From positions 2,557-66,556 of the forward strand of contig JACJWG010000015.1 of NCBI GenBank assembly GCA_020637235.1: DNA of 64,000 nucleotides. The letters run 5' to 3'. This document shows, in pieces, positions 29,915 to 53,163 of the stretch. The position numbers and the translations under genes were made by a program. The notes under the pieces were generated by a model, which saw nothing but the letters and a program-made list of their open reading frames with translations, did no database searches and was not told where the DNA came from. This DNA comes from Acidimicrobiaceae bacterium. Lineage in GTDB: Bacteria > Actinomycetota > Acidimicrobiia > Acidimicrobiales > Ilumatobacteraceae. Positions within the stretch are counted from its first letter, which is position 1, and each line of letters begins with the position of its first letter.

Positions 29915-29930
29915 TCGAACAGATGTTCGA
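29915..29930. promoter_or_regulatory. LexA (SOS/Cheo) box TCGAACAGATGTTCGA upstream of the HNH gene
   Basis: Perfect match to the Gram-positive/actinobacterial consensus TCGAAC-N4-GTTCGA. It lies 169 nt upstream of the HNH ATG in a 223-nt noncoding gap. Confidence 0.6.
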
Positions 29931-29938
29931 TCGACAAC

Positions 29939-29954
29939 CCCCGCGATCGCGGGG
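29939..29954 (-). terminator. 16-nt perfect GC palindrome CCCCGCGATCGCGGGG just downstream of the 29970 gene stop
   Basis: Read directly. Located 15 nt after the stop on the minus strand. No T tract, so function is uncertain. Confidence 0.3.
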
Positions 29955-29969
29955 AAGCGGCGGCGCTCG

Positions 29970-31157
29970 TCAGCGGCGACCGGCGACCGCGAAGGCGTCT
30001 TCGCTCGCCGCCGACGCCGCAGCCCCGGGTGCAGCGGCGCCCACCGCCGGCCGCTCGGACGGCATCTCGCGATCGACGAGTTCGCCACGCTCGACCCGCC
30101 GACGCACCCGCCAGCGCATCAGGAGCACACCGATGTTGAACACCACCAGCAGCACCACGCCGATGAGCAGCCACGGGCGATGGGTGGTGGTGAGCTCGTC
30201 GGTGACGGTGGGTCCGGCGCCCGAGGCGACGACCCGCCATTCCACGTCGCCGAACGACGGTGCCGGTACCTCGGCGACGACGCTCTGGCTCCACGTCTGT
30301 CCCACGCCGATCTGGCCGGGATCGTCGAACGGCAAGCTGGCGACGATGTCGGCGCCTCGGGTGGCGGTGGCCGAGAGTTGCACGTCGCGCAGTCCGGATG
30401 TCGACGTGTTCGTGACCCGCACCGTCACCTCGTAGGTGGCCGGTCCGCCGAGCTGGGCTCGGATCCCGCCGATCGCTCCGCTGGCACCGAGACCGGCTTC
30501 GATGGCGACGGTGAGCAAGGGACCGGTGACCTGTGGTTCGACCACCGGCCCGACCGGGTGCCCGGTGATCACGATCGGCGCGATCGCGATCTCACTGGTG
30601 TCGCGACCCACGGCCCGCAGCACGCACGGGCAATCGGTCGGTGGCGCCACGATCGGGATCGACATCCGCAATGGCGATCCGTCGATCGGGAACTCCTTGG
30701 TGACGCTGGCGGTCTGGTTGCAGTCGGGCGAGCCGCGGCGGGCCTCGTTGCCGCACACCGTCACGGTCGCCCAGATCGACTCGAACTGGTCGAGCGTGAC
30801 GATCACGCGCCCGCCCGGCGCCATCTCGGCGGCGTCGATCGACATCGACGGGCCCTCGACGATGCCCGGCGTCGACGACTCCGGCGTCGCGCCGTCAGGG
30901 GCCTGCGACGAGACCGCGGTGTCCGCCGTGGCGACCGTGGCGACCGTGGCAGCGGGGACGATGCTCGTGCCGGCGACGCTCGTGACCGACGCCTCGGCCG
31001 GTACCGACGCTGCGACGGTCGACGCCGGCACGGTCGACGCCGGGCTGGTGTCGGGTGTGGCCTCGTACGAGGCCGCCGCGGCACGCATGGTGACGAAGCC
31101 ACCGAACGCGCCGACGACGATCAGTGCCGCTGCGATCGCCGTGGCGCGTCCCTTCAC
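29970..31157 (-). CDS. bitopic membrane/surface protein (N-terminal anchor or signal, Ig-like middle, C-terminal TM + basic tail)
   Basis: GTG at 31157 overlaps the upstream stop (GTGA). 395 aa. Begins VKGRATAIAAALIVVGAFGG and ends PWLLIGVVLLVVFNIGVLLMRWRVRRR plus tail. Confidence 0.55.
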   Translation of the reverse strand: MKGRATAIAAALIVVGAFGGFVTMRAAAASYEATPDTSPASTVPASTVAASVPAEASVTSVAGTSIVPAATVATVATADTAVSSQAPDGATPESSTPGIVEGPSMSIDAAEMAPGGRVIVTLDQFESIWATVTVCGNEARRGSPDCNQTASVTKEFPIDGSPLRMSIPIVAPPTDCPCVLRAVGRDTSEIAIAPIVITGHPVGPVVEPQVTGPLLTVAIEAGLGASGAIGGIRAQLGGPATYEVTVRVTNTSTSGLRDVQLSATATRGADIVASLPFDDPGQIGVGQTWSQSVVAEVPAPSFGDVEWRVVASGAGPTVTDELTTTHRPWLLIGVVLLVVFNIGVLLMRWRVRRRVERGELVDREMPSERPAVGAAAPGAAASAASEDAFAVAGRR

Positions 31158-32305
31158 CGGAGCTGCGGTTCGCGGTCGCGGTCGTGATCGGTGCCGGGGA
31201 GCGTCCGCACGGCCGGCGCGACGGGCAGGGCGGCCATCCGGCGGCGGCGGTAGGCGCGGCGGGCGAGCAGCGCGAGCACCAGCAGGGCGAGCAGCAGCAG
31301 GATCGTGATCGGCGGTGCGAAGACGTTGGTGGATGCGACGGTGTCCTGCGCTCCCCCACGGGCGTTCGCCTCGTCGATGTCGATGCGCACCTCGGTGCGA
31401 TCGAGGAAGAGCGCCGGCACGCCGTCGAGGCTGGCGGTGAGGTCGATGGCCTGGCCGGGCAGGAGGTCGGTGATCGGGTCGAGCGTGATCTCCTTCTTCA
31501 TGAGACCGAACGGGCCGCCGACGGAGATGACCGGCGTGCCGCCGATGCGCACGTTGCCGCGGTTCTCGACCGAGAAGGTGACGTCGGCGCTGCCGCCGAA
31601 GGGGTTGGCCGAATGGCCGTACTCCGTCGACAGCGACGACACGGCCAGCTCGGCGGTCAGCTCTCCTTCCACCTGCACGTACAGGCGGGTGCCGGTGCGA
31701 CGCTCGACGTCGATCACCTGCCCGCTGCCGGTGTCCTCGGGCGTGACGCTGCCGGCGACGATCGCGCCGACGTGGTCTCCCGGTGCGGCGTCCACCGGAA
31801 CGGTCATCGTGAACGGGATGGTGGCCTGCTTGTTCGGTTCGAGGATGATCCGCTCCTGCACGAGCTGCACCCACGAGCCGGCGTCGACCGGCACGTCGTC
31901 GCCGGGCAGCAGGTCGAACTGGCCGTCGGCGTTGTTGAACGCATCGGTGGCGTACACGCGGAACTCGAGCGGCACGTTGCCGAGGTTGTAGAGCACCACG
32001 GTGTCCTCGATCACGGCTCCCGGCTGCACCTGGTAGGTGAAGTTGGGGCGGCTGCCGGGCTCGGAGCCGTCGGTGCCACCGCCGGTGGTGAGCGTCCAGC
32101 TCTGGACGATCTCGGGCGCGGGCGTAGCCACGTCGGTCTGCGCCGGATCGGTGCCTGCGGGCTCGGACGTCTGTGTTCCGTCGACCGACGTGTCGGGCAC
32201 GCTGGCGCTGGCGAACCCGCCGAGCGGTGCCGCAGGGGCGAGCGTGGACGCAGCGAGCAGGGAGGCGGCGAGCGCGGTGCGGATCGCATGGCGGCGGAAG
32301 TTCAT
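31154..32305 (-). CDS. DUF916/DUF3324-type cell-surface protein (CscA-like partner of WxL proteins), C-terminal TM anchor
   Basis: 383 aa with a signal peptide. FTYQVQPGAVIEDTVVLYNLGNVPLEFRVYATDAFNNADGQFDL, a second beta-sandwich-like half, then ITILLLLALLVLALLARRAYRRRR. Confidence 0.65.
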   Translation of the reverse strand: MNFRRHAIRTALAASLLAASTLAPAAPLGGFASASVPDTSVDGTQTSEPAGTDPAQTDVATPAPEIVQSWTLTTGGGTDGSEPGSRPNFTYQVQPGAVIEDTVVLYNLGNVPLEFRVYATDAFNNADGQFDLLPGDDVPVDAGSWVQLVQERIILEPNKQATIPFTMTVPVDAAPGDHVGAIVAGSVTPEDTGSGQVIDVERRTGTRLYVQVEGELTAELAVSSLSTEYGHSANPFGGSADVTFSVENRGNVRIGGTPVISVGGPFGLMKKEITLDPITDLLPGQAIDLTASLDGVPALFLDRTEVRIDIDEANARGGAQDTVASTNVFAPPITILLLLALLVLALLARRAYRRRRMAALPVAPAVRTLPGTDHDRDREPQLR

Positions 32306-32456
32306 GTATCGATCGCTCTCTGTGTGGCTCGAGCCGATGATGCGGCGAGCGGACCGGCGCAACGTAGCGAGGCTGTCTGGACGTCCGGTTGCCGCCGGGT
32401 GAACGGAGGTGGATGCGCGCATGAGCGCGCGAGGAATCGTCGGAGTCGTCGATGGC

Positions 32457-34433
32457 TCAGATGATGGTGAAGGTGAGCACACCGGAGTAGGTGCCGGCGT
32501 CGGCCGAGACCGGGATGAGCAGGTTGATGCGGGCATCCATCACAGCCATGCCGAGACCCGCACCAGCGTTCGCCTTCGACAGCGAGTTCGCCAGCGTGGT
32601 GTTGGTGCTGTTCGACGCATCACCCAGACCAGCCGTCGAGCTCGACGCGACCGGGAGGCGGGTGTCGCCCGCTGCCACCGTCATGTCGTAGCCGTCGAGG
32701 TTCGGGTTCGAGTCCCACGTCACCTCGGGCACCCAACCGAGCAGGTTGCCCGAGAAGCTGTCCGTGCCGCTGTTGAAGTTGCTCATCCGACCGTTCAACG
32801 TCCAGCCAGCATCGATGTCGCGGGTGTCCACGACCGTCAACTGAGCGATCCGACCCGTGCTGCGGAAGTACTGACCAGCCGACGGACCGCTCGTGACCAA
32901 CGAGGCGGTGCCGAGATCGATACCGCAGTTCGTGGCGTACGTCGCGATCGAGTCGCCGCTGCCGTCCACCGGGTACGGATACTGATCGAACAACCCATCA
33001 GGCTGACCAGCCGTCTCGGTCCCGACCGAGCCCACCCCGAACTCTCCCGAAACCTCCGGCAACGCATCCGCAACCGGAGCCGCGCCCATCGCAGCCGGCG
33101 GCACGACGTTCGGAGCCACGCCGGTGGGGTCGGCACCCGCAGTGGCCGCAAGGGCCGGCAACGTCGAGCCGAACAGGGCGTTCGAGTAGGCAGGGGCCGA
33201 ACCATGCACCCCACAGCGCTGCGTCAACACGAGCGCACCCTGCGGACGCACAACCGTGATGTCCTGCACCACGACCTGAGCGTTCACACAGGTGAACGTC
33301 GCCATGCCGGGAACCGTGACCTGACCGTTGCTGTAGTTGCCGACGACCTCGACCACGTAGCTGTCGGGTACCGCGCAGGCCACGCTGATGCTGTTGGTTG
33401 GTGCCGGGAGGGTTTGCGAGGCGATCGGCGCGGCCGAGCCGACGGGCACGAACGTGACCGTGTGGCTCACCAGCGTCGCGCCGCCCACCGGGCTACCGGT
33501 GCTCGGGGTCCACGACACCGTCACCGGGCTCGGACCGCTTGCAACTGCCACGACGGGGCGTGGGGCGAGCCAACCGTGGCACATGCAGACGGCCTGGGCG
33601 GCGGCAGCGGTGCTGCCGGCGTCGTTGGTCGCCGTGGCGACGATGTCGTACACGTCACCGTTGTTCAGACCGGTGAAACTGTAGGTGTACGGACCACCAG
33701 CCGGAATGCTCACCGGAGGCAGCGCCGGGCCAGCCGGGCTGGTCGGAGTCGCCGTCACCGTGTAACCCGTCACCGCAGGCGTCGCCGTCACCGGCGTGAT
33801 CTCACCCGTGATCTCCTGGAAACCGGCATCCGCGGTGAACACCGGAGCGGCCGGCTTGGTGCCGACGACCCAGTTGAGCGACGTGGTCGGGACCGTGTCC
33901 TTCACCGTGATCGTCGTCTCCCAGTACTTCTCCGTACCGGTCGCCGTCTTGTAGCACGCGAACCCGATCTTGTACTGACCATCGACCAGACCAGCAGCCA
34001 GGTTCGTGTTCAGGTTCAACGTCGACGTCCCCGAGATCGTGTACGGCGAGGCGGTGCCGATCGTCGTCTTCGCGATCTGCGGCGAACCCGTCGTCGAGTA
34101 CAACGGCTGGGCGATCGCACCAGCCGGCGCACCCGCCGGCAACTGCGGACCCGACGCAGTCCAGGTGAGCGTGCCCGCATCCACCGACGCCGACGTCAGA
34201 TACTGACCCCACCGGAAACCGTCCACCGAGGCATTCCCCGGGCAACCGTTGTTCGGCGCGGTCAAGGTCAACGAGAACGTCGTCGAGTTCGTACCCGAGT
34301 TCACGCTGATGTTCTGGCCCGGCGTCGCCGGCGTACCCGGAGGCAACGCCGACACACCCCCGACACCAACCACACTCGCCGACACCAGCGCCCCGACCAA
34401 CAGCCACCCCGACCTCGAGCCACGACCCACCAC
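32457..34433 (-). CDS. WxL-type surface protein, paralogue 1 (two-Cys N-domain + FN3-like repeats + C-terminal WxL-like domain)
   Basis: GTG at 34433 with GGAGGT 8 nt upstream, giving a signal-like N-terminus RGSRSGWLLVGALVSASVVGVGGVSA. The C-terminus has DTRDIDAGWTLNGRMSNF...GNLLGWVPEV...AGTYSGVLTFTII. Confidence 0.7.
   Translation of the reverse strand: MVGRGSRSGWLLVGALVSASVVGVGGVSALPPGTPATPGQNISVNSGTNSTTFSLTLTAPNNGCPGNASVDGFRWGQYLTSASVDAGTLTWTASGPQLPAGAPAGAIAQPLYSTTGSPQIAKTTIGTASPYTISGTSTLNLNTNLAAGLVDGQYKIGFACYKTATGTEKYWETTITVKDTVPTTSLNWVVGTKPAAPVFTADAGFQEITGEITPVTATPAVTGYTVTATPTSPAGPALPPVSIPAGGPYTYSFTGLNNGDVYDIVATATNDAGSTAAAAQAVCMCHGWLAPRPVVAVASGPSPVTVSWTPSTGSPVGGATLVSHTVTFVPVGSAAPIASQTLPAPTNSISVACAVPDSYVVEVVGNYSNGQVTVPGMATFTCVNAQVVVQDITVVRPQGALVLTQRCGVHGSAPAYSNALFGSTLPALAATAGADPTGVAPNVVPPAAMGAAPVADALPEVSGEFGVGSVGTETAGQPDGLFDQYPYPVDGSGDSIATYATNCGIDLGTASLVTSGPSAGQYFRSTGRIAQLTVVDTRDIDAGWTLNGRMSNFNSGTDSFSGNLLGWVPEVTWDSNPNLDGYDMTVAAGDTRLPVASSSTAGLGDASNSTNTTLANSLSKANAGAGLGMAVMDARINLLIPVSADAGTYSGVLTFTII
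33228..34357. repeat. 1.13-kb near-identical copy A of the duplicated tract (partner at 35446-36575, offset 2218)
   Basis: Identical embedded ORFs sit at offset 2218 (33388..33684 = 35606..35902; 34006..34206 = 36224..36424). I saw one mismatch (34275 vs 36493). Both tract boundaries are sharp. Confidence 0.85.
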
Positions 34434-34547
34434 GACACAGCACCTCCGACGAGAACCACTCCCCCACACCACAGCACCCGCACCGATCACCCGCCACCAC
34501 ACGACGATGGACGTTGGATGAACAACGGACCACACCCGAAAACGTGA

Positions 34548-34586
34548 CCGGCGGTGTGGGGCGCAAGGATCGCCCCACACCGCCGG
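34548..34586 (-). terminator. strong hairpin (16-bp perfect stem CCGGCGGTGTGGGGCG / CGCCCCACACCGCCGG, 7-nt loop) followed on the minus strand by a TTTT tract
   Basis: Read directly. Located about 65 nt downstream of the WxL paralogue-2 stop, between the two paralogues. Confidence 0.6.
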
Positions 34587-34650
34587 CCGGTGTCAGCACA
34601 TGACAACTGTGCGATTCAGATGTGAACCGTCACCGCTGCCTGATCGAGGA

Positions 34651-36657
34651 TCAGACGATGGTGAACGTGAGCACACCCTTGTAGGTGCCGGCGTCTGCCG
34701 AGACCGGGATCAACAGGTTGATCCGGGCATCCATCACAGCCATACCCAGACCTGCACCAACATTGGCCTTCGACAGCGAGTTTGCCAGCGTGGTGTTCGC
34801 CGGGTCCTGAGCGCCGAGACCGGCCGCCGAGGTCGACGCGACCGGCAAGCGCTCACCGCCCGCCGTGACGGTCATGTCATAGCCGTCGAGGTTCGGGTTC
34901 GAGTCCCACGTTACCTCGGGCACCCAACCGAGCAGGTTGCCCGAGAACTTCTCCGTCGCGGCGGTGTTGCCACCGAGGAAGAAGTCGCCCATCCGACCGT
35001 TCAACGTCCAGCCGGCGTCAGCGTCGCGGGTGTCCACGACGGTCAGCTGAGCGATCCGACCGGTGCTGCGGAAGTACTGACCAGCCGACGGACCGCTCGT
35101 GATCAGGCGAGCCTGCTCGAGAGTGATGCCGCAGTTGGTCGGGTAGGTGGCGATCGAGTCACCGTTGCCGTCCACCGGGTACGGGTACTGGTTGAACAGC
35201 ACGTCACCCGCACCAGGGGCGGTTTGCTGGCCGAGCGGGCCGACCGGGTTGGTCCCGAACGAGTTCGGGTCCGCAGCAGCGTCGTCACCCACCGGAGCCG
35301 TGCCCACCGCTGCCGGCGGCAGGATGTTCGGAGCCGTGCCGGTCGGATCGGCATCCGTGGTCGCCGTCAGAGCCGGGAACTGCGGGCCGAACAGGGCATT
35401 CGAGTACGCCGGGGCCGAGCCGTGCACGCCGCAGCGCTGGGTGAGCACGAGCGCACCCTGCGGACGCACAACCGTGATGTCCTGCACCACGACCTGAGCG
35501 TTCACACAGGTGAACGTCGCCATGCCGGGAACCGTGACCTGACCGTTGCTGTAGTTGCCGACGACCTCGACCACGTAGCTGTCGGGTACCGCGCAGGCCA
35601 CGCTGATGCTGTTGGTTGGTGCCGGGAGGGTTTGCGAGGCGATCGGCGCGGCCGAGCCGACGGGCACGAACGTGACCGTGTGGCTCACCAGCGTCGCGCC
35701 GCCCACCGGGCTACCGGTGCTCGGGGTCCACGACACCGTCACCGGGCTCGGACCGCTTGCAACTGCCACGACGGGGCGTGGGGCGAGCCAACCGTGGCAC
35801 ATGCAGACGGCCTGGGCGGCGGCAGCGGTGCTGCCGGCGTCGTTGGTCGCCGTGGCGACGATGTCGTACACGTCACCGTTGTTCAGACCGGTGAAACTGT
35901 AGGTGTACGGACCACCAGCCGGAATGCTCACCGGAGGCAGCGCCGGGCCAGCCGGGCTGGTCGGAGTCGCCGTCACCGTGTAACCCGTCACCGCAGGCGT
36001 CGCCGTCACCGGCGTGATCTCACCCGTGATCTCCTGGAAACCGGCATCCGCGGTGAACACCGGAGCGGCCGGCTTGGTGCCGACGACCCAGTTGAGCGAC
36101 GTGGTCGGGACCGTGTCCTTCACCGTGATCGTCGTCTCCCAGTACTTCTCCGTACCGGTCGCCGTCTTGTAGCACGCGAACCCGATCTTGTACTGACCAT
36201 CGACCAGACCAGCAGCCAGGTTCGTGTTCAGGTTCAACGTCGACGTCCCCGAGATCGTGTACGGCGAGGCGGTGCCGATCGTCGTCTTCGCGATCTGCGG
36301 CGAACCCGTCGTCGAGTACAACGGCTGGGCGATCGCACCAGCCGGCGCACCCGCCGGCAACTGCGGACCCGACGCAGTCCAGGTGAGCGTGCCCGCATCC
36401 ACCGACGCCGACGTCAGATACTGACCCCACCGGAAACCGTCCACCGAGGCATTCCCCGGGCAACCGTTGTTCGGCGCGGTCAAGGTCAACGAAAACGTCG
36501 TCGAGTTCGTACCCGAGTTCACGCTGATGTTCTGGCCCGGCGTCGCCGGCGTACCCGGAGGCAACGCCGACACACTCCCGGTGCCGAAGACGCTCACCGA
36601 CGCGGCGGCTGCGAGTGCCGTCGTGATGGCGAGCGAACGCTTCATGTTGATACGCAT
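34651..36657 (-). CDS. WxL-type surface protein, paralogue 2
   Basis: 668 aa with a classical signal peptide MRINMKRSLAITTALAAAASVSVFGTGSVSA. Same architecture as paralogue 1. The C-terminus is ...GWTLNGRMGDF...GNLLGWVPEV...AGTYKGVLTFTIV. Confidence 0.8.
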   Translation of the reverse strand: MRINMKRSLAITTALAAAASVSVFGTGSVSALPPGTPATPGQNISVNSGTNSTTFSLTLTAPNNGCPGNASVDGFRWGQYLTSASVDAGTLTWTASGPQLPAGAPAGAIAQPLYSTTGSPQIAKTTIGTASPYTISGTSTLNLNTNLAAGLVDGQYKIGFACYKTATGTEKYWETTITVKDTVPTTSLNWVVGTKPAAPVFTADAGFQEITGEITPVTATPAVTGYTVTATPTSPAGPALPPVSIPAGGPYTYSFTGLNNGDVYDIVATATNDAGSTAAAAQAVCMCHGWLAPRPVVAVASGPSPVTVSWTPSTGSPVGGATLVSHTVTFVPVGSAAPIASQTLPAPTNSISVACAVPDSYVVEVVGNYSNGQVTVPGMATFTCVNAQVVVQDITVVRPQGALVLTQRCGVHGSAPAYSNALFGPQFPALTATTDADPTGTAPNILPPAAVGTAPVGDDAAADPNSFGTNPVGPLGQQTAPGAGDVLFNQYPYPVDGNGDSIATYPTNCGITLEQARLITSGPSAGQYFRSTGRIAQLTVVDTRDADAGWTLNGRMGDFFLGGNTAATEKFSGNLLGWVPEVTWDSNPNLDGYDMTVTAGGERLPVASTSAAGLGAQDPANTTLANSLSKANVGAGLGMAVMDARINLLIPVSADAGTYKGVLTFTIV
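35446..36575. repeat. 1.13-kb near-identical copy B of the duplicated tract
   Basis: See 33228-34357. Confidence 0.85.
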
Positions 36658-36698
36658 GATGTTTGATTCGTTCCTTCTGTGGTGGTTCGAGGGGAGGC

Positions 36699-37889: not shown

Positions 37890-38153
37890 GTTCTGGACGA
37901 TCCCTTCGATCGGTTGTTCTCCGCCCACTCGCTGAGTGGCGGGGGGATCGTGACAGGGCGAACTTTCGTCCAGTTGGCCTCAAGATGAACACAGACAGTG
38001 ATTTCGAAGTGTTCATCTCCGCGTCGTGCAGCGCTCAACCAACCACCACCGTCCCGTCGTCTCGTGCCGGAGCACGCGTCGCGCGACGCGCTAGGGCATG
38101 CACACGCGACGATGACCCGATGCCATCCAGGCGCACCGGGTCATTGAGATCAG

Positions 38154-38171
38154 GTCGAGCAATTGCTCGAC
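38154..38171 (-). terminator. perfect 18-nt palindrome GTCGAGCAATTGCTCGAC 8 nt after the pstB stop
   Basis: Read directly. It forms a 7-bp stem with an AATT loop and has no U tract. It is followed by a ~260-nt lower-GC noncoding region. Confidence 0.4.
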
Positions 38172-38178
38172 TTCGTGG

Positions 38179-39654: not shown

Positions 39655-39691
39655 GTGGTCGGTTCTCCTCGGTCGTCGCAGCGGCGAGCGA

Positions 39692-45325: not shown

Positions 45326-47295
45326 GTCGGATGCTCCACGGCGAAGTAGCGCCACGCCATGGCAGGGACCACGACCACCGCCATCATCAGCAGCACGATC
45401 AGCACGATCAGCGCCAGTGAGCCGTTCCAACCCGACCCGTTCCGAAGTGTCGCGGTCACCACCGGCCCAGCGGACGCGACCTGAGCTGCGTTCGCAGCCT
45501 GCTGGCCCACCTGCGCACTGGCGCCACCGCAGAGTCCTGTGTCCGGGTCGCATGTCGTCGGGTCGATCACACCGCCGGCGGTGAGCGTGGGATCGACCAC
45601 GGGCGCCCCAGTGACCGCATCGACCGGTGCGCCGCTCGCGTCGAGCACCGTGTTCACCGTGGCGCCGCCAGCAGTCGGGGTCGCGCCGCCGGCAGTCGGG
45701 GTCGCACCGCCAGCAGTCGGCGTCGCACCGCCAGCAGTCGGCGTCGCACCGCCAGCAGTCGGCGTCGCACCGCCAGCAGTCGGCGTCGCACCGCCAGCAG
45801 TCGGCGTCGCACCGCCAGCAGTCGGCGTCGCGGCCCCACCGGCCGCCGGTGACGATGCTCCGCCAGCCGGATTGGCGCTGCTCGCCACCGATCCGCTTCC
45901 GGCTGCCGGCGCGGCTGCCTGTGCACTGGGGTTCACCGCTGTCGGGACGTTCGCCAACCCGGCGGTGCCGTTCGGGCACTGCAGTGGGCCCTGCTTGTCG
46001 CAGGCCTGCGGCTGTGGTGCACGTTCGGCGAGCAGGTTGCCGCCATCGGGTGAGAACGTCGGGTTCTTGCACTGCGTGATGTCGATGTCCTGCACCTGGA
46101 CCCCAGGGATCTTGCGGATCTGCTCGAAACTGGCCTCCACGAGGTTCACCGGCATCGGCGAATAGCCGAGTGATGCCGACGACTGCTGTGCCTGACACAT
46201 CGCGTAGTACGCGAAGTCGCCGAGTGTTCGCCCCTTCGCCTCGTTGAACTGGCCACCGACCTTCGTCGGCAGGATCAGGTACGAGTACGACGACAGCTGG
46301 TAGCTGCGGGGATCGGTGTCGGTGTAGACGCCGGAGAGGTCCTGCGTCAGATACGTCTGCGGATTGCTCTCGTTGGTGTTGATCTTCGCCTTCAGCAACG
46401 ACACGGCGACGTTCTCCGGAGTGGGCTCCACGTAGTAGCCGGCAGCGTTGAGCAGCTTCACCACCGGGAACTGAGTGCCGAGCGCGTACGAGTAGTTCAC
46501 GTATCCGATCGCACCCTCGGCGAAGCTCTGGCTCACGTATTGCGACACGCCGACATCGCCCGATTGGGAGATCATCCCGCTGATCGTCGGGTAGAACGAC
46601 GTCGGGCCGCACGCCGGCGCCCGCCCCGAACGCTCGCAGAAGCTCTGCCAGACGGCTGGGTGGCGGTCGATCATCCACATCGTGAGTTGCTGTGTCGAAC
46701 CGGAGCCCTCCGCTCGTACCACCGGCACGATGTTGCGCGCCGGCATGTTCAGGCCAGGGTTGTCCGCTTGAATCGCCGGGTCGTTCCACGTCTTGATCGC
46801 GCCTGTGAAGATCTTCGCGATGTTCTCGCCCGAGAGGCGCAGGTTCGTCACCTGCGCGCCGTTGATCCGGAGGTTGTACATGAATGCTGTGCCGCCGGCG
46901 GTGATCGGCATGTACGCGTAGCTTCCGGGAGCCGGCCGCTCGGGTGCGGAGCCGTCCTCCGGTTCGAACTGGAACGGGATGTCGGATGCTGCGAAATCGA
47001 CCGTGCCGTTGAGGAAGTTCTTGCGGCCGGCGGTGGAGCCCGTGGGGTTGTAGTCGATGGTGATGCCGAACTGCTGCACGTTGACACGCATTGCGTCGAT
47101 GGCGTTCGCCGACCACGAGGATCCCTCGCCGGAGATGCGTTGGTACTCCTGGGCGACGGCGGCGGGCGTCGATGCCGAAGCGACGCACAACGATGCGATC
47201 AACAGGCTCCACACACCGATCGCAGCCGACGCGAGGCTGCGCGAGCGCCGCGGCCGGACGCGGGGACCCGCCGGAGAGTCGGTCGAGGGATTCAC
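45322..47295 (-). CDS. pstS: PstS-family phosphate-binding protein with (GGATPTA)8 stalk and C-terminal TM anchor
   Basis: GTG at 47295 with a GAGGAAG RBS. ISGEGSSWSANAIDAM, GSTAGRKNFLNGTVDFAASDIP, RAEGSGSTQQ and SYSYLILP match actinobacterial PstS. The protein is 657 aa because of the repeat stalk and the TM segment LALIVLIVLLMMAVVVVPAMAW. Confidence 0.8.
   Translation of the reverse strand: MNPSTDSPAGPRVRPRRSRSLASAAIGVWSLLIASLCVASASTPAAVAQEYQRISGEGSSWSANAIDAMRVNVQQFGITIDYNPTGSTAGRKNFLNGTVDFAASDIPFQFEPEDGSAPERPAPGSYAYMPITAGGTAFMYNLRINGAQVTNLRLSGENIAKIFTGAIKTWNDPAIQADNPGLNMPARNIVPVVRAEGSGSTQQLTMWMIDRHPAVWQSFCERSGRAPACGPTSFYPTISGMISQSGDVGVSQYVSQSFAEGAIGYVNYSYALGTQFPVVKLLNAAGYYVEPTPENVAVSLLKAKINTNESNPQTYLTQDLSGVYTDTDPRSYQLSSYSYLILPTKVGGQFNEAKGRTLGDFAYYAMCQAQQSSASLGYSPMPVNLVEASFEQIRKIPGVQVQDIDITQCKNPTFSPDGGNLLAERAPQPQACDKQGPLQCPNGTAGLANVPTAVNPSAQAAAPAAGSGSVASSANPAGGASSPAAGGAATPTAGGATPTAGGATPTAGGATPTAGGATPTAGGATPTAGGATPTAGGATPTAGGATVNTVLDASGAPVDAVTGAPVVDPTLTAGGVIDPTTCDPDTGLCGGASAQVGQQAANAAQVASAGPVVTATLRNGSGWNGSLALIVLIVLLMMAVVVVPAMAWRYFAVEHPT
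45659..45826 (-). repeat. eight tandem 21-nt units (GTCGCACCGCCAGCAGTCGGC) encoding GGATPTA repeats
   Basis: Read directly. Six units are identical and the first two are slightly diverged. Confidence 0.9.
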
Positions 47296-47299
47296 GTCG

Positions 47300-48601
47300 T
47301 CACTTCCTCTGCAAGATGGCGGGGAGACGCCCGGCTCGCTCGCCGAGCTGTGGTGCCTCGGGCACCGACTCGGGCTCGATGCGGGCGAGGTCGGCCAGCG
47401 ACTGCGCCGCAGCCCGGCGAGCTTGACGCGTCGACTGGCGGCCTGCCGGCCGGCCGCCGAGCACGCGGGCGATCGTGAACAGCACGAGCACCATCACCAT
47501 GAGCACCGAGGCCGCCCCGAAGCCGCGAGCGATCTGGTTCGGTTCGGGTGAGCTGACGAGTTTGAACGCCGTCACCGGCAGCGACGCCATCGGGTTGTTG
47601 GTCGGATCGAGGTTGAGCGAGGTGGCGTACCCAGAGGTCAACAGCACCGGAGCCGTCTCGCCGATGCCTCTGGCCACCCCGAGGATCACCGAGGTCGTCA
47701 GACCGGATCGTGCCGTCGGGAGGACCACGTGCCAGACGGTCCGCCACCGCGGTGCGCCGAGGGCGGCAGCAGCCTCCCGCAGGCTGCCGGGCACCAGCCG
47801 CAGCACCACGTCCGCCGAGCGGATGATGATCGGCAGCATCATGATCGAGATCGAGATCGATGCTGCGAGACCGCTTCGTGGGAAGCCCAGCACGAGCACC
47901 CAGGTGGCGAAGATGAACAGACCTGCGACGATCGACGGCAGCGCGGTCATCGCTGTCACGATCGTGCGGACCGCATTCACCGCGCGGCTCTTGCTCTCGG
48001 TCAGGAACACCGCGCACGTGACCGCCAGCGGCACGGTGAGCACGAGGCTGATCGCTGTCATGATCAGCGTTCCGACGATCGCGTGCAGCACGCCGCCACT
48101 CGTCAACGGTTGTTCCGGACCGGTGACGCGGAGGTCCTCGGTGTAGAAGTTGAGGTGACGCAACGCGGTCCAGCCGCGCTTGAACGTGAAGAAGATCACC
48201 GAGCCGAGCGCCACGAGCGCGACGGCAGCGGCAGCCGTCAGGAGCACCGTCATCACCCGGTCGATCACTGCAGGTCGCGACTCGGTGAACGACGACATCA
48301 CGGCATACGTGACGACGAAGAGGACGAACGCGGTGACTGCGAACCCGAGACGACCGTGCAGCGGCGTGAGACGGCCGAAGATCAGCGCCGCCATGCAGAT
48401 GCTGCTGAGACCGACACCAGCCAACATCTGCGCGTCGCGCTTCGAGAACGACGAGATCGATCGCGGCACCGCCACTCCGCGGGGCGGCGAGTCACGCAGA
48501 GGCAACGAGGTCCTGCGCTGCGCTCGCGCGGACGGAGCCAGGACTGCGGCGGCGGGCGCCGGAGAGGTCTCGACCTCCCCTGACCAGACGGTGGAGGTCA
48601 T
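47300..48601 (-). CDS. pstA: phosphate ABC transporter permease PstA (long N-terminal extension)
   Basis: 433 aa. GGVLHAIVGTLIMTAISLVLTVPLAV, TALPSIVAGLFIF, GIGETAPVLLTSG. The ATG overlaps the pstC stop (ATGA). Confidence 0.85.
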   Translation of the reverse strand: MTSTVWSGEVETSPAPAAAVLAPSARAQRRTSLPLRDSPPRGVAVPRSISSFSKRDAQMLAGVGLSSICMAALIFGRLTPLHGRLGFAVTAFVLFVVTYAVMSSFTESRPAVIDRVMTVLLTAAAAVALVALGSVIFFTFKRGWTALRHLNFYTEDLRVTGPEQPLTSGGVLHAIVGTLIMTAISLVLTVPLAVTCAVFLTESKSRAVNAVRTIVTAMTALPSIVAGLFIFATWVLVLGFPRSGLAASISISIMMLPIIIRSADVVLRLVPGSLREAAAALGAPRWRTVWHVVLPTARSGLTTSVILGVARGIGETAPVLLTSGYATSLNLDPTNNPMASLPVTAFKLVSSPEPNQIARGFGAASVLMVMVLVLFTIARVLGGRPAGRQSTRQARRAAAQSLADLARIEPESVPEAPQLGERAGRLPAILQRK

Positions 48602-49623
48602 GCTTCGCTGTCCGCTCCGGAACGAGAACGTGCGACGAACCACGACGCCGTGAAGTTGACCACCAACGTGATGAGGAACAGCGACAGTCCGGCCGAGAAC
48701 AGCGCTGACAGACCGAAGTCCGACGCCTCCGCATAGCGAAGCGCGATCAGCGCGGACACCGAGTTGCTCCCCGACTCGAGCACGTGGAACGAGATGTCGA
48801 ACCGAGAGGAGATGATCATGTAGACCGCGATCGTCTCGCCGAGCGCCCGGCCGAGGCCGAGCATGGTGCCGCCGATGATGCCACCGCGGCCGAACGGCAA
48901 GGTGACCACTCGGATCATGCCCCACCGGGTTGCTCCAAGTGCGAACGCACCCTCGCGCTCACCTGGCGGCACCTGCGAGAACACCTCGCGCATCACGACG
49001 CACTGGATGGGCATCACCATCATGGCGACGACGACACCGGCGACGAACGTGGACGCCGTGTACACCGTGGCGTTCGACAGCGGATTGCCCGGGTCGGCAC
49101 CATCGACCGAGAACAGCGGAATCCAGCCGAACCAGGTGTTGATCCATCGTGACAGACCGATCACCTGTCCCTGCATCAAGAACGCGCCCCAGAGGCCGTA
49201 GACCACGCTCGGCACCGCTGCCATGAGGTCGACGAGCGAGACGAGCCACGACTTGACGCGCCTCGGTGCGATCTCCACGATGAACAGCGCCGTCGCCATC
49301 GAGATCGGGAAGGCGATCGCCACTGCCACGAGCGCGATGAGCACCGTGAAGGTGAGCACGGCCTTGATCCCGAACTCACCGCGGTCCGGCTCCCACACCG
49401 ACGTGGTGAGGAACGAGAACCCGACCCTTCCGAGGGCATCGGTCGACTCGAGCGTGAGGAAGAAGCCGACCGCACCCATGATCGCGAGCACGGCAACGCC
49501 ACTGAGGAACGTGACCCGCGTGAACACCTTGTCGCTGCGACCTTGCCGGCCTGCGAACGGCCGCGGTTCGGGTTCGCCCACGCGCTCCTGGGGCGGCAGG
49601 ACGGTGCGGAGTTCGGCGGTCAT
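48598..49623 (-). CDS. pstC: phosphate ABC transporter permease PstC
   Basis: 341 aa. AVPSVVYGLWGAF, REGAFALGATRWGMI, LGRALGETIAVYM. The ATG overlaps the upstream stop (ATGA). Confidence 0.85.
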   Translation of the reverse strand: MTAELRTVLPPQERVGEPEPRPFAGRQGRSDKVFTRVTFLSGVAVLAIMGAVGFFLTLESTDALGRVGFSFLTTSVWEPDRGEFGIKAVLTFTVLIALVAVAIAFPISMATALFIVEIAPRRVKSWLVSLVDLMAAVPSVVYGLWGAFLMQGQVIGLSRWINTWFGWIPLFSVDGADPGNPLSNATVYTASTFVAGVVVAMMVMPIQCVVMREVFSQVPPGEREGAFALGATRWGMIRVVTLPFGRGGIIGGTMLGLGRALGETIAVYMIISSRFDISFHVLESGSNSVSALIALRYAEASDFGLSALFSAGLSLFLITLVVNFTASWFVARSRSGADSEA

Positions 49624-50876
49624 GCCAGCCACGCCGCCAGCACCACGAGCACGATCGCGGTGGTGAGCCCGAGCAGGAGGACGTCGAGGTGGCGGGCATT
49701 GGCCCAGAAGCCGCTCTTCACCGGCACTGCCGGCGCGGTCTGGACGACCACCTGCTGCGGCACGGCCGGACCGCGCTCGCCGATCACCGCCGACACGACG
49801 GTGGCGACCGCGCGGGCGAACACCTCGGGATCGTTCATCGGCACCGCACCCATCGCCGGCGGCGGCACCGGGGCGGCGGGCGTCTCGCGCCGATCGGCCG
49901 GCGCCCACGGCGAGCGCCGCTCGGCAGTGGTCTCATCGGCGGATCCCAGGATCACCACGGGAGCGACCGGCGACGGTGCGATCGGTGCACCACCCGGGAG
50001 CGAGTCGGGCGGCGGGGTGCCGAGCACGATCGCTCGCTCGGGTGCGGGCGCAGCCGCCGCGCGACGCACCTCCTCGGCCCGACGCACCATGTCGGAACGG
50101 CGCACCGTCTCGGCCCGATCGTGCTCCTCGGCCCGACGCAGTTCGTCGACCCGACGCTGTTCCTCGGCCCGACGCATCTCCTCAGCGCGACGCATCTCCT
50201 CGACCCGACGCATCTCCTCAGCGCGACGCATCTCCTCGACCCGACGCATCTCCTCAGCGCGACGCATCTCCTCGACGCGACGCGACTCCTCAGCGCGACG
50301 CGACTCCTCGGCCCGCTGGAGATCTTCGGCCCGCTGGAGTTCCTCGGCCTCACGGGCGGCCTCGGCTCGGCGCATCTCCTCGAAGCGACGCTCTTCGTCG
50401 AGCCGACGCTGCTGCTCGGCGAGTGCCCGCTCGGCCGCCATGCGGGCCTCACGCGCCCGCTCCTCGGCGGCGCGACGCTCGTCCTCGAGACGCGCCCATT
50501 CGGCCAGCCGCTGCTCCTCGGCTACGCGCGCTCGCTCGGCGGCCTCGGCCTCCTCCGCCACCCGCTGCTGCTCGCGGCGCACCACCTGCTCGGCCTGCTC
50601 GACGATCGCGTCGGCCTGTGCGCGCGCCGTGTCGACCACCGCGGCAGCGGCCGCTCGTGCGGCATCGAGCTCGGCGTCCATCTCCTGGCGGCGCTGGTCG
50701 AGCAAGGGGCCGAGCTGTGCGACGAGCGCAGCCCGGGCCTCTTCGGGATCGGACGGCTGACCGTCCTCGGCCACCCGTACCCGGCGTTCCGCCTGACGCA
50801 GCCGCAGCTGCAGCCGCGCGAACTCGGCTCGCCGATCGGCAGTCGACGCGCCTCGACGTGAGCTGTCAGCCGACAT
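49620..50876 (-). CDS. coiled-coil protein with Glu/Arg-rich hexapeptide repeats, Pro-rich region and C-terminal TM anchor
   Basis: 418 aa. (EEMRRA/EEMRRV)n core, then GFWANARHLDVLLLGLTTAIVLVVLAAWLA. Translationally coupled to pstC. Confidence 0.6.
   Translation of the reverse strand: MSADSSRRGASTADRRAEFARLQLRLRQAERRVRVAEDGQPSDPEEARAALVAQLGPLLDQRRQEMDAELDAARAAAAAVVDTARAQADAIVEQAEQVVRREQQRVAEEAEAAERARVAEEQRLAEWARLEDERRAAEERAREARMAAERALAEQQRRLDEERRFEEMRRAEAAREAEELQRAEDLQRAEESRRAEESRRVEEMRRAEEMRRVEEMRRAEEMRRVEEMRRAEEMRRAEEQRRVDELRRAEEHDRAETVRRSDMVRRAEEVRRAAAAPAPERAIVLGTPPPDSLPGGAPIAPSPVAPVVILGSADETTAERRSPWAPADRRETPAAPVPPPAMGAVPMNDPEVFARAVATVVSAVIGERGPAVPQQVVVQTAPAVPVKSGFWANARHLDVLLLGLTTAIVLVVLAAWLA
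50170..50313 (-). repeat. eight tandem 18-nt units (CGACGCATCTCCTC[AG/GA]CS) encoding EEMRRA/V repeats
   Basis: Read directly. The units alternate, giving a 36-nt super-unit. Confidence 0.85.
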
Positions 50877-51354
50877 CGCCCAACCCCTGTTCGTAGGACG
50901 GACGCACTCCCGCGAGCAACGAGTCGGCGCGGCGACGGCCGTCGGCCATGATCCGCTTCGCTTCCGACTCGGCGCCGATGCGGATCGTCTCGAGGCGGCG
51001 CACGTGCTCGGCCTCCATGTCGGCCAGCTGCGTCTCGAAGGTCTCGATCACGGCGCGCAGCGCCGCATCGCGCTCCTCGGCGCGCCGCTCCGCAGCGGCG
51101 GCGCGCTGCGTCGCGTCGCGCACCTCTGCCTCCAGCGCCGCCAGATCGGCGTCGGTCGAGGGACGTGGCCCGTCGGTCGGCGGCGGCGGGGTGGGCCCCG
51201 ACACGATCGGCATCCGGTGGGTGACCTCGGCAGCCGGCGGCAAGGCCGTCGGCGGCACGGACGTCGGTGACACGGCCGGCGGTGGCGGTGGCACCATGCC
51301 GAGCAGCTCGTCCTGGCGCCGCCAGAACTCGTCGTCGAACGGTGAGCTCGTCAT
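50866..51354 (-). CDS. Pro-rich + coiled-coil hypothetical protein
   Basis: ATG at 51354; 162 aa. MTSSPFDDEFWRRQDELLG, a PPPPP tract, then a helical AEVRDATQRAAAAERRAEERDAALRAVIETFETQLADMEAEH. It overlaps the next gene by 11 nt. Confidence 0.5.
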   Translation of the reverse strand: MTSSPFDDEFWRRQDELLGMVPPPPPAVSPTSVPPTALPPAAEVTHRMPIVSGPTPPPPTDGPRPSTDADLAALEAEVRDATQRAAAAERRAEERDAALRAVIETFETQLADMEAEHVRRLETIRIGAESEAKRIMADGRRRADSLLAGVRPSYEQGLGDVG

Positions 51355-51380
51355 GTGGACTCCGTTGGTCGACGACATGA

Positions 51381-52394
51381 TCAGCCGATCAGCGCCATGG
51401 CAGCGGTCAGGGCTGCCGTCGCCGCCGCGATCGACACCACCGCTTGCGTGGGGAACCACCCGCCGTCCTGCTCGTCCGCCCCGCCATCGCTCCAGAACCG
51501 CCGCCGATCCTGCTCGAGCAGCTCCAGCCGTGCGAGCGACTGGTCGCGGTCGACACCGATCTCCCGCACCGTCGGTGCCTCTTCGAGGATCACCAGATCT
51601 CGCGGGCTCGCGCTGCGCGTCGTCGCCGGCGCATGGTGCGCCACGGCCTCGCGCCGCATCGTCAGCTGAGGCTGCTGAGGCTCGGTCGGCGCCACCGACC
51701 CGGTCCCCGCCATCGCCGGCATCGGTGTGGGCATCGGCCGCAGCACGTCGCCGAGCGCCGACAGCAGCGACCGCAGATCGACGCCGTCGGAGTGGTCGAG
51801 CACCTCCCGCACCGCTCCGGGCAGCGCGGCCTGCGTCGCTGGACGCGATCGAGGAGGGATCGCCGCCGCCTGCGTCCCCCGGCTCGCCGCAGGGGCTGGC
51901 AGTGCGACGCCGGCGCGTGCCACGGTCGCGGGTGCGGCCGGCACCGCGGCCGGCGAGCTGTGTCGAGCCTCGATCAGCTCCACCTGGCGCACCAGCGCCC
52001 GGCGCGCCGTGGCCTCGTCCATCGCCTGCCCGGCGCTCGAGTTGAGCGCCGACCACCAGCCATCGAGCAACGCAGCCAGCTGGCGCGTCGCCGCGCCGGC
52101 ATCCCAGGCGTCGAGGTCGAGCAGGTCGTCGGCGGCGTGCTGGTCGAGCAGCGCTGCCTCGTGGCGACCCACCTTCGACACGATCGCCCGCTGGGCGTCG
52201 AAGAACTGGCGCGACAGCTGCATCGTCGATGCGGCCACGCCCTCGAGCTGGCCGGTGCCGCGCACGATCACCGCCGCATCGCCGACCGCTTCGAGGTAGC
52301 GCTGCTGGTGGTCGCGGAGGGCGTCGAGGTAGCGCTCGGTGGCCTCGCGGGTGGAGGCCGCCGAAGCTCGGAGTGCGGAGGGGGCAGCGCTCAC
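51381..52394 (-). CDS. hypothetical protein with C-terminal TM segment
   Basis: Codon bias supports this frame from about 52394 (GTG; an alternative ATG is at 52223). It ends with WFPTQAVVSIAAATAALTAAMALIG. No family recognised. Confidence 0.45.
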   Translation of the reverse strand: MSAAPSALRASAASTREATERYLDALRDHQQRYLEAVGDAAVIVRGTGQLEGVAASTMQLSRQFFDAQRAIVSKVGRHEAALLDQHAADDLLDLDAWDAGAATRQLAALLDGWWSALNSSAGQAMDEATARRALVRQVELIEARHSSPAAVPAAPATVARAGVALPAPAASRGTQAAAIPPRSRPATQAALPGAVREVLDHSDGVDLRSLLSALGDVLRPMPTPMPAMAGTGSVAPTEPQQPQLTMRREAVAHHAPATTRSASPRDLVILEEAPTVREIGVDRDQSLARLELLEQDRRRFWSDGGADEQDGGWFPTQAVVSIAAATAALTAAMALIG

Positions 52395-53128: not shown

Positions 53129-53132
53129 TGAC

Positions 53133-53143: not shown

Positions 53144-53163
53144 CCCGTGTTTACATCGATGCC

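Follow-up and report, generated by a model that had tools for sequence, protein, structure and literature searches.

Genes of the Pst-type phosphate importer normally form a compact four-gene operon in the order pstS-pstC-pstA-pstB. What, then, is encoded by a locus in which such genes are interleaved with those of a sortase homologue without its catalytic residues and of a series of secreted, membrane-anchored proteins? The question is raised by a window of 64,000 nucleotides (nt), the whole stretch of DNA that was analysed, from the metagenome-assembled genome of an Acidimicrobiaceae bacterium placed in the Ilumatobacteraceae (assembly GCA_020637235.1, contig JACJWG010000015.1, positions 2,557 to 66,556), in which the array of interest runs from 52394 down to 29970. 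The answer favoured here, with a confidence slightly better than even, is that the locus encodes a paralogous, specialised Pst-type importer, a 'tethered Pst', which would scavenge phosphate by means of tethered or wall-displayed receptors and in which the sortase homologue (the pseudo-sortase) would serve as a non-catalytic membrane adaptor.

Gene order and its recurrence in Actinomycetota

Relatives of the locus were sought through its pseudo-sortase, g9, with one genome per species: at least 493 loci encode a relative, and the 80 most similar were inspected, up to 10 kilobases (kb) on each side, by tblastn and by hidden Markov models (HMMs) of domains built from the orthologs. In 70 of the 72 loci with enough sequence, pstB follows the pseudo-sortase gene, and among the 48 widest loci the anchored PstS is found in 47, the large PstS-fold protein g6 in 47 and the secreted PstS-family protein g11 in 48. 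The hosts belong to the Acidimicrobiia, Streptomyces, Streptosporangiales, Micromonosporales, Micrococcales and Pseudonocardiaceae; at least five orders and two classes are represented, and three layouts can be distinguished. Acidimicrobiia, including Candidatus Microthrix and Iamiaceae, repeat the order of the window almost exactly; Streptomyces, Planotetraspora and one Pseudonocardiaceae genome possess the bare core pstC-pstA-pstS-g6-g11-pseudo-sortase-pstB; and Microbacterium, Cryobacterium, Leucobacter and Plantactinospora add WxL-like and DUF916 genes to this core. Genes for two-Cys and coiled-coil proteins occur in Acidimicrobiia only, among the loci inspected, and the WxL/DUF916 genes in Acidimicrobiia, Micrococcales and Micromonosporales; the Streptomyces loci hold no two-Cys, WxL-like or DUF916 genes. 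Judged by gene content, the universal core is made up of pstC, pstA, the anchored pstS, g6, g11, the pseudo-sortase gene and pstB, with the rest as lineage-specific accessories. An earlier annotation, made from the letters of the window alone and referred to below as the sequence-only reading, had raised the co-occurrence of pstC, pstA and pstB with the dead sortase and with two-Cys genes in related genomes: the former is what the neighbourhoods show, whilst the latter is seen in Acidimicrobiia and not elsewhere.

Two loci depart from the rule for pstB. In one (L034), pstB, pstA and pstC are found beyond g15 in inverted orientation, on the opposite strand, suggesting that the locus was rearranged locally, and in the other (L077, Pseudonocardiaceae) no pstB was found within 10 kb.

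The transporter itself also sets the cluster apart. In three Acidimicrobiia loci, an ordinary pstS-pstC-pstA set directly follows g15 (L005 18578-20809, L016 18154-20883 and L019 18882-20925), and its PstS has a lipoprotein-like N-terminal signal and, unlike the PstS of the cluster, no C-terminal anchor. Within one genome, the cluster and ordinary proteins are 37% (PstC) and 30% (PstS) identical, and the cluster proteins are 60-72% (PstC) and 58-64% (PstS) identical to those of the clusters of Streptomyces, Planotetraspora and Cryobacterium. By these identities, the cluster transporter is an old paralogue and constitutes a distinct Pst lineage.

Both observations bear on the explanation by chance juxtaposition, according to which an ordinary pst operon has been interrupted by recently inserted surface-protein genes. 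An HNH-type gene at the downstream edge of the array and a very recent duplication or gene conversion of g12 and g13 could be taken in its favour. However, order and content are kept across the orders and classes named above, the Pst genes belong to a paralogous lineage of their own, proteins exist in which receptor and surface domains are fused, and the G+C content shows no island-like break (0.66-0.74 in the array vs ~0.70-0.72 in its flanks, in a window of ~70% G+C). The relatives show the core in 47-48 of the 48 wide loci and not an ordinary contiguous pstSCAB with the intervening genes absent or variable. The idea that an ordinary pst operon had lately been broken up by an insertion is contradicted by the cross-order conservation and the separate Pst lineage and was rejected, and chance juxtaposition in general is hardly credible.

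The features of the array, with those that adjoin it, are the following.

51381-52394, minus strand: g0, 337 amino acids (aa), GTG start; tail-anchored membrane protein with a single C-terminal hydrophobic segment
50866-51378, minus strand: g1, 170-aa coiled-coil protein with no transmembrane segment; start uncertain
49620-50876, minus strand: g2, 418 aa; E/R-rich coiled coil with EEMRRA hexapeptide repeats, transmembrane segment at 394-412
48598-49623, minus strand: pstC (g3), 341-aa PstC-type permease, TIGR02138
47300-48601, minus strand: pstA (g4), 433-aa PstA-type permease, TIGR00974
45322-47295, minus strand: g5, 657-aa anchored PstS-type phosphate-binding protein
42416-45325, minus strand: g6, 969-aa secreted, C-terminally anchored protein; beta-sandwich N-domain and PstS-fold domain
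41640-42419, minus strand: g7, 259 aa; two-Cys domain and a plain transmembrane anchor at the C-terminus
40651-41643, minus strand: g8, 330-aa two-Cys-domain protein; S/T-rich stalk, IPETG, transmembrane segment and basic tail
39692-40654, minus strand: g9, 320-aa pseudo-sortase with a class-E-like fold
38179-39654, minus strand: pstB (g10), PstB-type ATPase (residues 238-491) with an N-terminal extension
37890-38178, minus strand: pstB-g11 spacer, 289 nt, with hairpins and a palindrome
36699-37889, minus strand: g11, 396-aa secreted PstS-family protein without anchor; start uncertain
34651-36657, minus strand: g12, 668 aa; two-Cys domain, fn3 domains and WxL-like C-terminal domain
34548-34586, minus strand: g12-g13 hairpin, GC-rich, CCGGCGGTGTGGGGCG-N7-CGCCCCACACCGCCGG, then TTTT
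32457-34433, minus strand: g13, ~658 aa, tandem paralogue of g12; GTG start at 34433 or 34430
31154-32305, minus strand: g14, 383-aa WxLIP-like protein; DUF916/WxLIP_PGBD, Ig-like (immunoglobulin-like) second domain, C-terminal transmembrane segment
29970-31157, minus strand: g15, 395-aa bitopic membrane protein; start uncertain
26813-28129, minus strand: g16, 438-aa two-Cys-domain protein; poly-Thr stalk and a signal of FPRTG, transmembrane segment and basic residues

Genes were called from reading frames, junctions and homology, because in DNA of 70% GC the G+C content at third (GC3) and other codon positions did not identify them clearly. From 52394 to 29970, the genes backed by homology cover the minus strand throughout, and the seven overlaps listed in the sequence-only reading can all be read: the 11-nt overlap ATGTCGGCTGA shared by g1 and g2 at 50866-50876, and ATGA at 49620-49623, 48598-48601, 45322-45325, 42416-42419, 41640-41643 and 40651-40654. 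Further junctions are equally close, with 2 nt between g0 and g1, 4 nt between pstA and g5 (pstS), and a GTGA overlap of g14 and g15 at 31154-31157; g9 lies 37 nt upstream of pstB within this tightly packed chain. The longer array that had been seen in place of the canonical pstS-pstC-pstA-pstB order is real, inasmuch as its order recurs in dozens of genomes, and the domain calls made for PstC, PstA, the anchored PstS, the PstS-fold half of g6 and a third PstS-family protein hold.

Permease, ATPase and PstS-fold proteins

The engine of the array is recognisable as that of a Pst importer. PstC scores 236.7 bits with TIGR02138 (cut-off 196.45) and PstA 222.5 bits with TIGR00974 (cut-off 193.45), both above the equivalog cut-offs, and g3 and g4 match E. 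coli PstC and PstA at 4.5e-45 and 2.8e-31, respectively. The equivalents of PstC Arg237 and PstA Arg220 are present and are invariant among the orthologs (43/43 and 45/45); these two residues set the specificity of the membrane domain for inorganic phosphate (Pi), according to a 2026 cryo-electron microscopy study (PMC12976172). The ATPase g10 (ABC_tran, 8.8e-35) finds its best match in TIGR00972, over residues 238-491, and since this match starts at residue 238 the N-terminal extension amounts to ~237 aa: the extension proposed in the sequence-only reading stands, its length of 222 aa does not. It is conserved among Acidimicrobiia orthologs and mainly confined to them, although in two Streptomyces loci (L038, L040) the reading frame of pstB is matched by the extension model too, and its orthologs gave no Pfam family and no recognisable signalling domain. 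The PstA of the window is longer than E. coli PstA by ~100 residues at the N-terminus (48300-48601), and this added part contains two further hydrophobic segments.

The first of the presumed receptors, g5, is PstS-like in its binding domain (PBP_like_2 2.5e-34; matches to PstS structures in the PDB down to 5e-25), and its phosphate ligands (Thr10, Ser38, Asp56, Arg135, Ser139, Gly140 and Thr141 in E. coli numbering) are identical or Thr/Ser-exchanged in 49 of 49 orthologs. From the N-terminus, it consists of a signal peptide, the PBP domain, a Cys-containing linker, a stalk of nine PTAGGAT repeats (encoded in frame with a 21-nt period at 45637-45867), a 'GW..' juxtamembrane motif and a C-terminal transmembrane segment; the cluster PstS is anchored in this way in every lineage, with a conserved GW..Q..ML motif before the anchor. 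Because the arginines of PstCA and the ligands of g5 are kept, orthophosphate, or an oxyanion very close to it, is the most likely transported species.

The likeness to PstSCAB of E. coli and M. tuberculosis comprises the scores of PstC and PstA, the best match of the ATPase to PstB and the alignment of g5 with solved PstS. In contrast to PstSCAB, the order in the window is pstC-pstA-pstS-g6-(g7-g8)-g9-pstB, and in all lineages it is non-canonical, with 1 to ~5 genes between pstS and pstB; the PstS stands on a stalk with a C-terminal transmembrane segment instead of being a lipoprotein or free in the periplasm; the core includes two further PstS-fold proteins; a pseudo-sortase gene precedes pstB; no phoU lies in the cluster; and the cluster co-exists with an ordinary pst operon in the three Acidimicrobiia loci mentioned above.

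The second presumed receptor, g6, gave no sequence match in Pfam, NCBIfam or the PDB, and is so diverged that its PstS fold is revealed by structure only. Its AlphaFold2 model (predicted local distance difference test score, pLDDT, 88.4; predicted template-modelling score, pTM, 0.88) was compared with the PDB by Foldseek, and the top 43 matches are all PstS, PhoX or DING proteins (E to 3.7e-12, TM-score to target <=0.79). The PstS-fold domain carries insertions, and an S/T-rich stalk precedes the transmembrane segment; g6 is C-terminally anchored in all lineages, and g11 never is. Modelled alone (pLDDT 82), the N-domain of ~300 aa is a beta-sandwich for which Foldseek found no significant PDB match; Greek-key hits resembling Cu/Zn superoxide dismutase were marginal (E ~0.02), and homology to that enzyme was not accepted. 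A role of g6 as a phosphatase or nuclease was likewise rejected, as no such fold was found in it, nor was a hydrolase fold of either kind found in any protein of the cluster. Homologues of g6 number ~955; among the 120 listed, none has a Pfam domain and every named one is 'hypothetical'.

For the third presumed receptor, g11, a single-sequence search of the PDB found nothing, but its family profile matches phosphate-binding proteins only (2.4e-8). Local-mode hhalign relates it to the g5 family (81%, E 1.2e-5), and PBP_like_2 matches 5 of 26 orthologs, with 36.5 bits in a Streptomyces ortholog, above the cut-off of 27. At the level of profiles, g11 is confirmed as a diverged PstS-family protein. 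Its pocket keeps Ser38 and the Ser-Gly-Thr turn; Asp56 is replaced by Ser, Arg135 is lost and a new invariant Arg140 appears in the motif 'FARSS', and thus its ligand may differ.

These features of g11 bring up a second explanation, in which the machine is the same and the cargo another: phosphite, arsenate, sulfate-like anions, glycerol-phosphate or fragments of phosphate-rich wall polymers would be imported alongside orthophosphate or in its place, with g6 and g11 as their specific receptors. Besides the pocket of g11, in which the phosphate-discriminating Asp56 is among the losses, the divergence of g6, the scores of PstS and PstB under their equivalog cut-offs and the retention of an ordinary pstSCA alongside in several genomes, which suggests non-redundant roles, agree with it. 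The invariance of the two Pi-specificity arginines, the full set of phosphate ligands in g5, including the Asp56 equivalent, and the lack of phosphatase or nuclease folds in the cluster proteins disagree, and another cargo is considered unlikely, albeit with an appreciable share of the weight.

Proteins built on the PstS fold are also extended in other lineages. In three Microbacterium loci (L058, L075 and L080), pstB is followed by a gene for a fusion protein, in which a PstS domain (PBP_like_2, 1e-35 to 1e-39) is joined to a C-terminal domain alignable with the WxL-like domains of g12 and of the WxL-like protein from the same locus (custom-HMM domain E ~6e-8), with the common motif VVDDR..GW.L..DF..DA.L.L.IP..A..G.Y..TLT.TL. 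Through these fusions, a phosphate-binding fold is tied directly to what is putatively a wall-binding module. In Streptomyces, g11 is fused to fn3 and several Big_3_5 Ig-like repeats, without an anchor (e.g., L050 7737-9770). Since such fusions and extensions exist, display of PstS-fold receptors on or through the wall seems to be a common theme.

The pseudo-sortase and the tail of g8

The product of g9 combines an N-terminal transmembrane segment, a sortase fold and a Trp-rich C-terminal membrane hairpin, the latter conserved in all lineages. It matches the Pfam Sortase family (PF04203) at 1.2e-13, with 51.3 bits vs a cut-off of 26.6 and over model positions 1-83 of 125 only, and scores 65.8 bits with the class E model NF033747, whose cut-off of 160 is not reached. 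When g9 is aligned with class E sortases of the PDB (2.4e-11), the catalytic His pairs with an Arg, R157, and this position is Arg in 77 of 77 locus orthologs; the position of the catalytic Cys (TLxTC), A216, is Ala in 74, Ser in 2 and Thr in 1 of them, and there is no Cys anywhere in the fold. The same holds for the family at large: across 151 aligned sequences (150 diverse representatives and g9) the His position is occupied by Arg (147) or Lys (4), the Cys position is never Cys in the 150 representatives, and the third residue of the triad, Arg, is kept in ~1/3. An invariant motif, GPGHRRD..LPGQ.G, flanks the site in this family, which comprises ~241 clusters at 50% identity and whose members carry the NCBI name 'class E sortase'. 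The lack of catalytic His and Cys, first noticed in the window, is therefore a property of g9 and of its whole family, which is, to judge from these alignments, an old pseudo-enzyme under purifying selection and not a decayed gene. The family-wide substitutions exclude the idea that the dead sortase is in truth an active enzyme, disguised by an error of sequencing or annotation.

The closest relatives of g9 are the class E sortases, such as Streptomyces SrtE (5GO5) and the sortase-like protein of Corynebacterium diphtheriae (5UUS), which share the N-terminal transmembrane segment and, in the sortase beta-barrel, the 'GPGH...PGQ.G' region. The g9 family differs from them in the exchange of His for Arg or Lys and of Cys for Ala (Ser/Thr), in the frequent loss of the third Arg, in the additional Trp-rich hairpin and in the linkage to pstB.

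What could such a protein bind? A gene of the g8 type always stands directly upstream of the pseudo-sortase gene in Acidimicrobiia, and its products carry a poly-Thr/Ser stalk after the two-Cys domain and end in L[PAV]xTG followed by a conserved transmembrane segment with the near-constant sequence VWAxLLLVFGRMAxLLxRP. In the window, the motif is IPETG, an LPxTG-type signal, and the transmembrane segment reads 'VWSVLLVVFGRMAVLLARP' before a basic tail. No other part of the protein is conserved as well as this tail, whose pairwise identity is 0.57 vs 0.41 for the ectodomain. The opposite would be expected of a segment that is cleaved off and discarded, and the tail is therefore presumably kept and bound, the simplest candidate for its recognition being the neighbouring sortase fold, which does not cleave. 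As lineages without g8 keep the pseudo-sortase, g8 is neither its sole nor its universal partner; the conserved tails of g5 and g6, or PstCA, are candidates for other partners. On these grounds a bolder proposal can be made, tentatively and with more doubt than belief, namely that the pseudo-sortase is a new kind of ABC (ATP-binding cassette)-importer subunit, a sortase turned from catalysis into a permanent receptor for C-terminal tails that resemble sorting signals, whose old substrate groove and extra membrane hairpin would dock stalked or wall-bound PstS-fold receptors on PstCA, yielding a wall-spanning multi-receptor apparatus for nutrient capture peculiar to Actinomycetota.

Surface modules, regulation and the proposed apparatus

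A domain of ~170 aa with an invariant Cys pair is common to g7, g8, g12, g13 and g16, and g7 is related to the N-termini of g8 and g12 with an hhalign probability of 100%. The profile of this two-Cys domain has no match in the PDB and no named relative; g7 has no Pfam match, and of the 90 homologues of g8 none has a Pfam domain and all named ones are 'hypothetical'. The two secreted two-Cys proteins proposed between g6 and the sortase homologue, g7 and g8, are both genuine, and their anchors differ, g8 bearing the LPxTG-type signal and g7 a plain transmembrane segment, which in its orthologs ends in a '...LSKE'-type tail. Outside the 29970-52394 interval, and separated from g15 by the HNH-type gene, g16 matches the two-Cys HMM and has a Thr run of ~20 residues and a transmembrane segment at 405-423. 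In L002 and L020, too, g15 is followed by an equivalent two-Cys gene, and the downstream end of the array may therefore lie farther out.

The open reading frame between g15 and g16 (28370-30088, minus strand) has a His-rich, HNH-like C-terminal motif (…HHVEFWEHGG…CRHHHDRLH) and resembles the DUF222/HNH genes common in actinobacteria; it may be a mobile insertion. A Pfam scan of its first 476 residues, which do not include the part with the C-terminal motif, gave no match.

The WxL affiliation of g12 and g13 is of a weaker kind than that of the DUF916 protein. All g12 orthologs contain fn3 (23/23), and Pfam WxL is matched in 6/23, below threshold (best E 3e-4), as it is in a Microbacterium protein (6.7e-4). 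The C-terminal part of g12 aligns with the Microbacterium WxL-like domains, with the first WxL motif kept and the second degenerate (T[FLV]T[ILV]); of the two WxL-type proteins of the sequence-only reading, then, the WxL-like C-terminal domains stand, and Pfam WxL matches are sub-threshold only. Most relatives have one such protein vs two in the window. Here, g12 and g13 share a 1,047-base-pair block of perfect DNA identity in their two-Cys/fn3 part (33228-34274 and 35446-36492), and their 3' WxL-like parts are 80-91% identical, which fits either recent gene conversion of tandem paralogues or an assembly collapse. The DUF916 call for g14 is sound, with 33.7 bits for PF06030 (cut-off 27.3), a match in 28 of 28 orthologs and a transmembrane segment at 323-341. 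Its second domain matches the generic Ig-like families NPCBM_assoc, DUF7507 and CARDB, and a search for DUF3324 at E <= 0.1 found it in none of the 28 orthologs. This second domain has a homologue in the C-terminal domain of g15 (hhalign of g15 against g14 97%, residues 236-363 to 236-365); g15 follows g14 in Acidimicrobiia, and a shorter protein of the type of the g14 C-terminal domain takes the equivalent place in Micrococcales.

More than 91% of known WxL sequences come from Firmicutes (PMC9772566), in keeping with the statement in the sequence-only reading that such clusters are described mainly from that phylum. The module resembles the WxL/WxLIP (Csc) clusters of Lactobacillales and Bacillales (PMC9772566, PMC10599100) in its protein with DUF916, Ig-like domain and transmembrane segment, its large WxL-like proteins and its LPxTG-type protein. 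It differs in that no small protein of a WxL domain alone is present in the window, both WxL-like proteins being large, that no DUF3324 is detectable and that the second WxL motif is degenerate. Moreover, it lies inside an ABC importer operon, its WxL-like domain is fused to PstS in Microbacterium, and its hosts are free-living aquatic or soil bacteria of the Actinomycetota and not gut commensals.

These proteins invite a third explanation, that of surface display or envelope assembly, in which the Pst-like module would mainly energise, or act as a platform for, the assembly or regulation of a two-Cys, WxL and WxLIP layer instead of importing a nutrient. Many stalked surface proteins are indeed encoded, a sortase fold normally serves the assembly of surface proteins, the tail of g8 resembles a sorting signal, and in Firmicutes the WxL/WxLIP clusters form complexes on the cell surface (PMC10599100). 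Against this, the surface genes are lineage-specific and missing from the Streptomyces-type core, PstCA are permeases of type I importers with their Pi-specificity residues intact, and the sortase, its catalytic residues replaced, is unable to catalyse transpeptidation. The explanation is accordingly judged quite unlikely.

At the upstream end, g0 is the first gene of the packed chain, has no match in a Pfam search and is uncertain as a member of the array. All Pfam matches of g1 are sub-threshold, and tblastn found no match for it among the 80 loci, where its position is at or beyond the upstream edge; it is, as far as these loci indicate, a lineage-specific accessory. In g2, an in-frame array with an 18-nt period (50044-50439) encodes the EEMRRA-type hexapeptides, and the C-terminal ~70 residues are kept upstream of pstC in ~15 Acidimicrobiia loci. 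The repeat arrays of g2 (50044-50439) and g5 (45637-45867) are likely to vary in length between strains. Farther upstream (52538-54396), a TetR-family gene on the minus strand, which ends 143 nt before g0, is divergent from a plus-strand gene that is labelled P450-like from a reading of its translation only. The TetR gene probably regulates this neighbour rather than the pst array; it is still the nearest regulator gene.

Two stable hairpins, at 38112-38144 and at 38154-38171, lie in the pstB-g11 spacer, whose RNA fold has an energy of -64.4 kcal/mol (z = -2.4 vs shuffled sequences) and in which no T-run terminator was called; about 100 nt upstream of g11, the spacer also holds the palindrome GATGAACAC (38009-38017)-N16-GTGTTCATC (37984-37992). 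The spacer possibly acts as a terminator, a processing site or an operator ahead of g11. The hairpin between g12 and g13, with its TTTT, is likely a terminator. The GTTCA core of the palindrome recalls actinobacterial PHO boxes in an inverted, not direct, arrangement, and it is a possible operator. A scan for sigma-70 and terminator consensus sequences returned sites no more frequently than in shuffled sequence.

Canonical Pst has a known signalling role, towards PhoR. By analogy, the paralogue could form a phosphate-sensing complex, reporting external phosphate rather than contributing much flux, and the multiple receptors and the cytoplasmic N-extension of PstB in Acidimicrobiia could serve such a purpose. 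Yet the conserved genes of the cluster include none for a kinase, PhoU or a regulator, and the extension is lineage-specific and without a recognisable signalling domain, which makes this explanation very unlikely.

In returning to the tethered Pst importer, it should be stressed how far the one cell-envelope machine of the sequence-only reading has survived: a conserved unit around a Pst importer stands, surface genes and coiled coils belong to it in certain lineages only, and its mode of capture is one we infer. In outline, g5 would capture phosphate near the membrane and dock on PstCA as ordinary PstS does, its tether keeping the local concentration high. The outer receptors, g6 and g11 and in some lineages also the PstS::WxL fusions or the Ig-repeat-extended g11, would lie within or beyond the wall, where they would pass phosphate on towards the membrane or else bind phospho-ligands of other kinds. 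The WxL-like/WxLIP-like module of Acidimicrobiia, Micrococcales and Micromonosporales may hold part of the apparatus on peptidoglycan, to which Acidimicrobiia would add the stalked two-Cys proteins. The pseudo-sortase, its gene co-inherited with pstB and with a peptide-binding fold that would be kept and no cleavage, may act as the adaptor that holds C-terminal tails beside the transporter; in Acidimicrobiia, this tail would be the L[PAV]xTG motif and conserved transmembrane segment of g8.

Several points weigh against this reading. The loci inspected are the best 80 of the relatives and were chosen via the pseudo-sortase, and therefore similar Pst paralogues without it would be missed. Two of the engine's parts fall short of their equivalog models, g5 with 176.8 bits under the 205 of TIGR00975 and g10 with 331.7 bits vs 343.2 for TIGR00972, 12 bits short. 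The proteins g11, without Asp56 and Arg135, and g6 may bind another ligand than phosphate, or nothing, and Streptomyces and other lineages carry the pseudo-sortase without any g8. Phosphate regulation is unsupported, because in 20 Streptomyces-type loci the region before pstC contained no PHO box under a strict scan (one without a positive control; the actual promoter may also be farther upstream) and footprinting of the same regions was uninformative, the 5' end of pstC being variable and repeat-rich.

Receptors attached near a permease are known from GlnPQ and OpuA of Gram-positives and from anchored binding proteins of archaea. There, fusion to the permease, a lipid or an N-terminal helix keeps the binding domains in place, whereas here they are separate proteins with C-terminal helices, long low-complexity stalks and a pseudo-enzyme subunit. 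A functional analogy, and nothing beyond it, is offered by Pseudomonas aeruginosa, which is reported to bear PstS- and DING-carrying surface appendages under phosphate limitation (PMC2242829, PMC3949141), with phosphate-binding proteins displayed away from the transporter. The appendages differ in standing on a Gram-negative outer surface, in using unrelated display machinery and in not being encoded in one operon with an importer. Full-text literature searches found no published description of the present arrangement, just as the sequence-only reading knew of no described system of this composition.

The engine of the cluster is a known one, the Pst importer; a pseudo-sortase subunit and a set of tethered PstS-fold receptors were not found described in the literature searched. 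Its parts are currently labelled 'class E sortase' or 'hypothetical protein', and three uncharacterised domains, the g6 N-domain, the two-Cys domain and the N-extension of PstB, are now defined for structural work. With a pseudo-sortase family that has a clear genomic partner, none having been found described in the literature searched, the role of a dead sortase becomes directly testable. The WxL/WxLIP wall-binding modules are extended to Actinomycetota and to a setting that is nutritional and not one of host adhesion. Acidimicrobiia, Microbacteriaceae and Streptomyces abound in lakes, oceans and soils, habitats in which growth is often limited by phosphate, and a widespread second Pst with tethered, wall-displayed receptors would change both the view and the annotation of phosphate scavenging in thick-walled bacteria.

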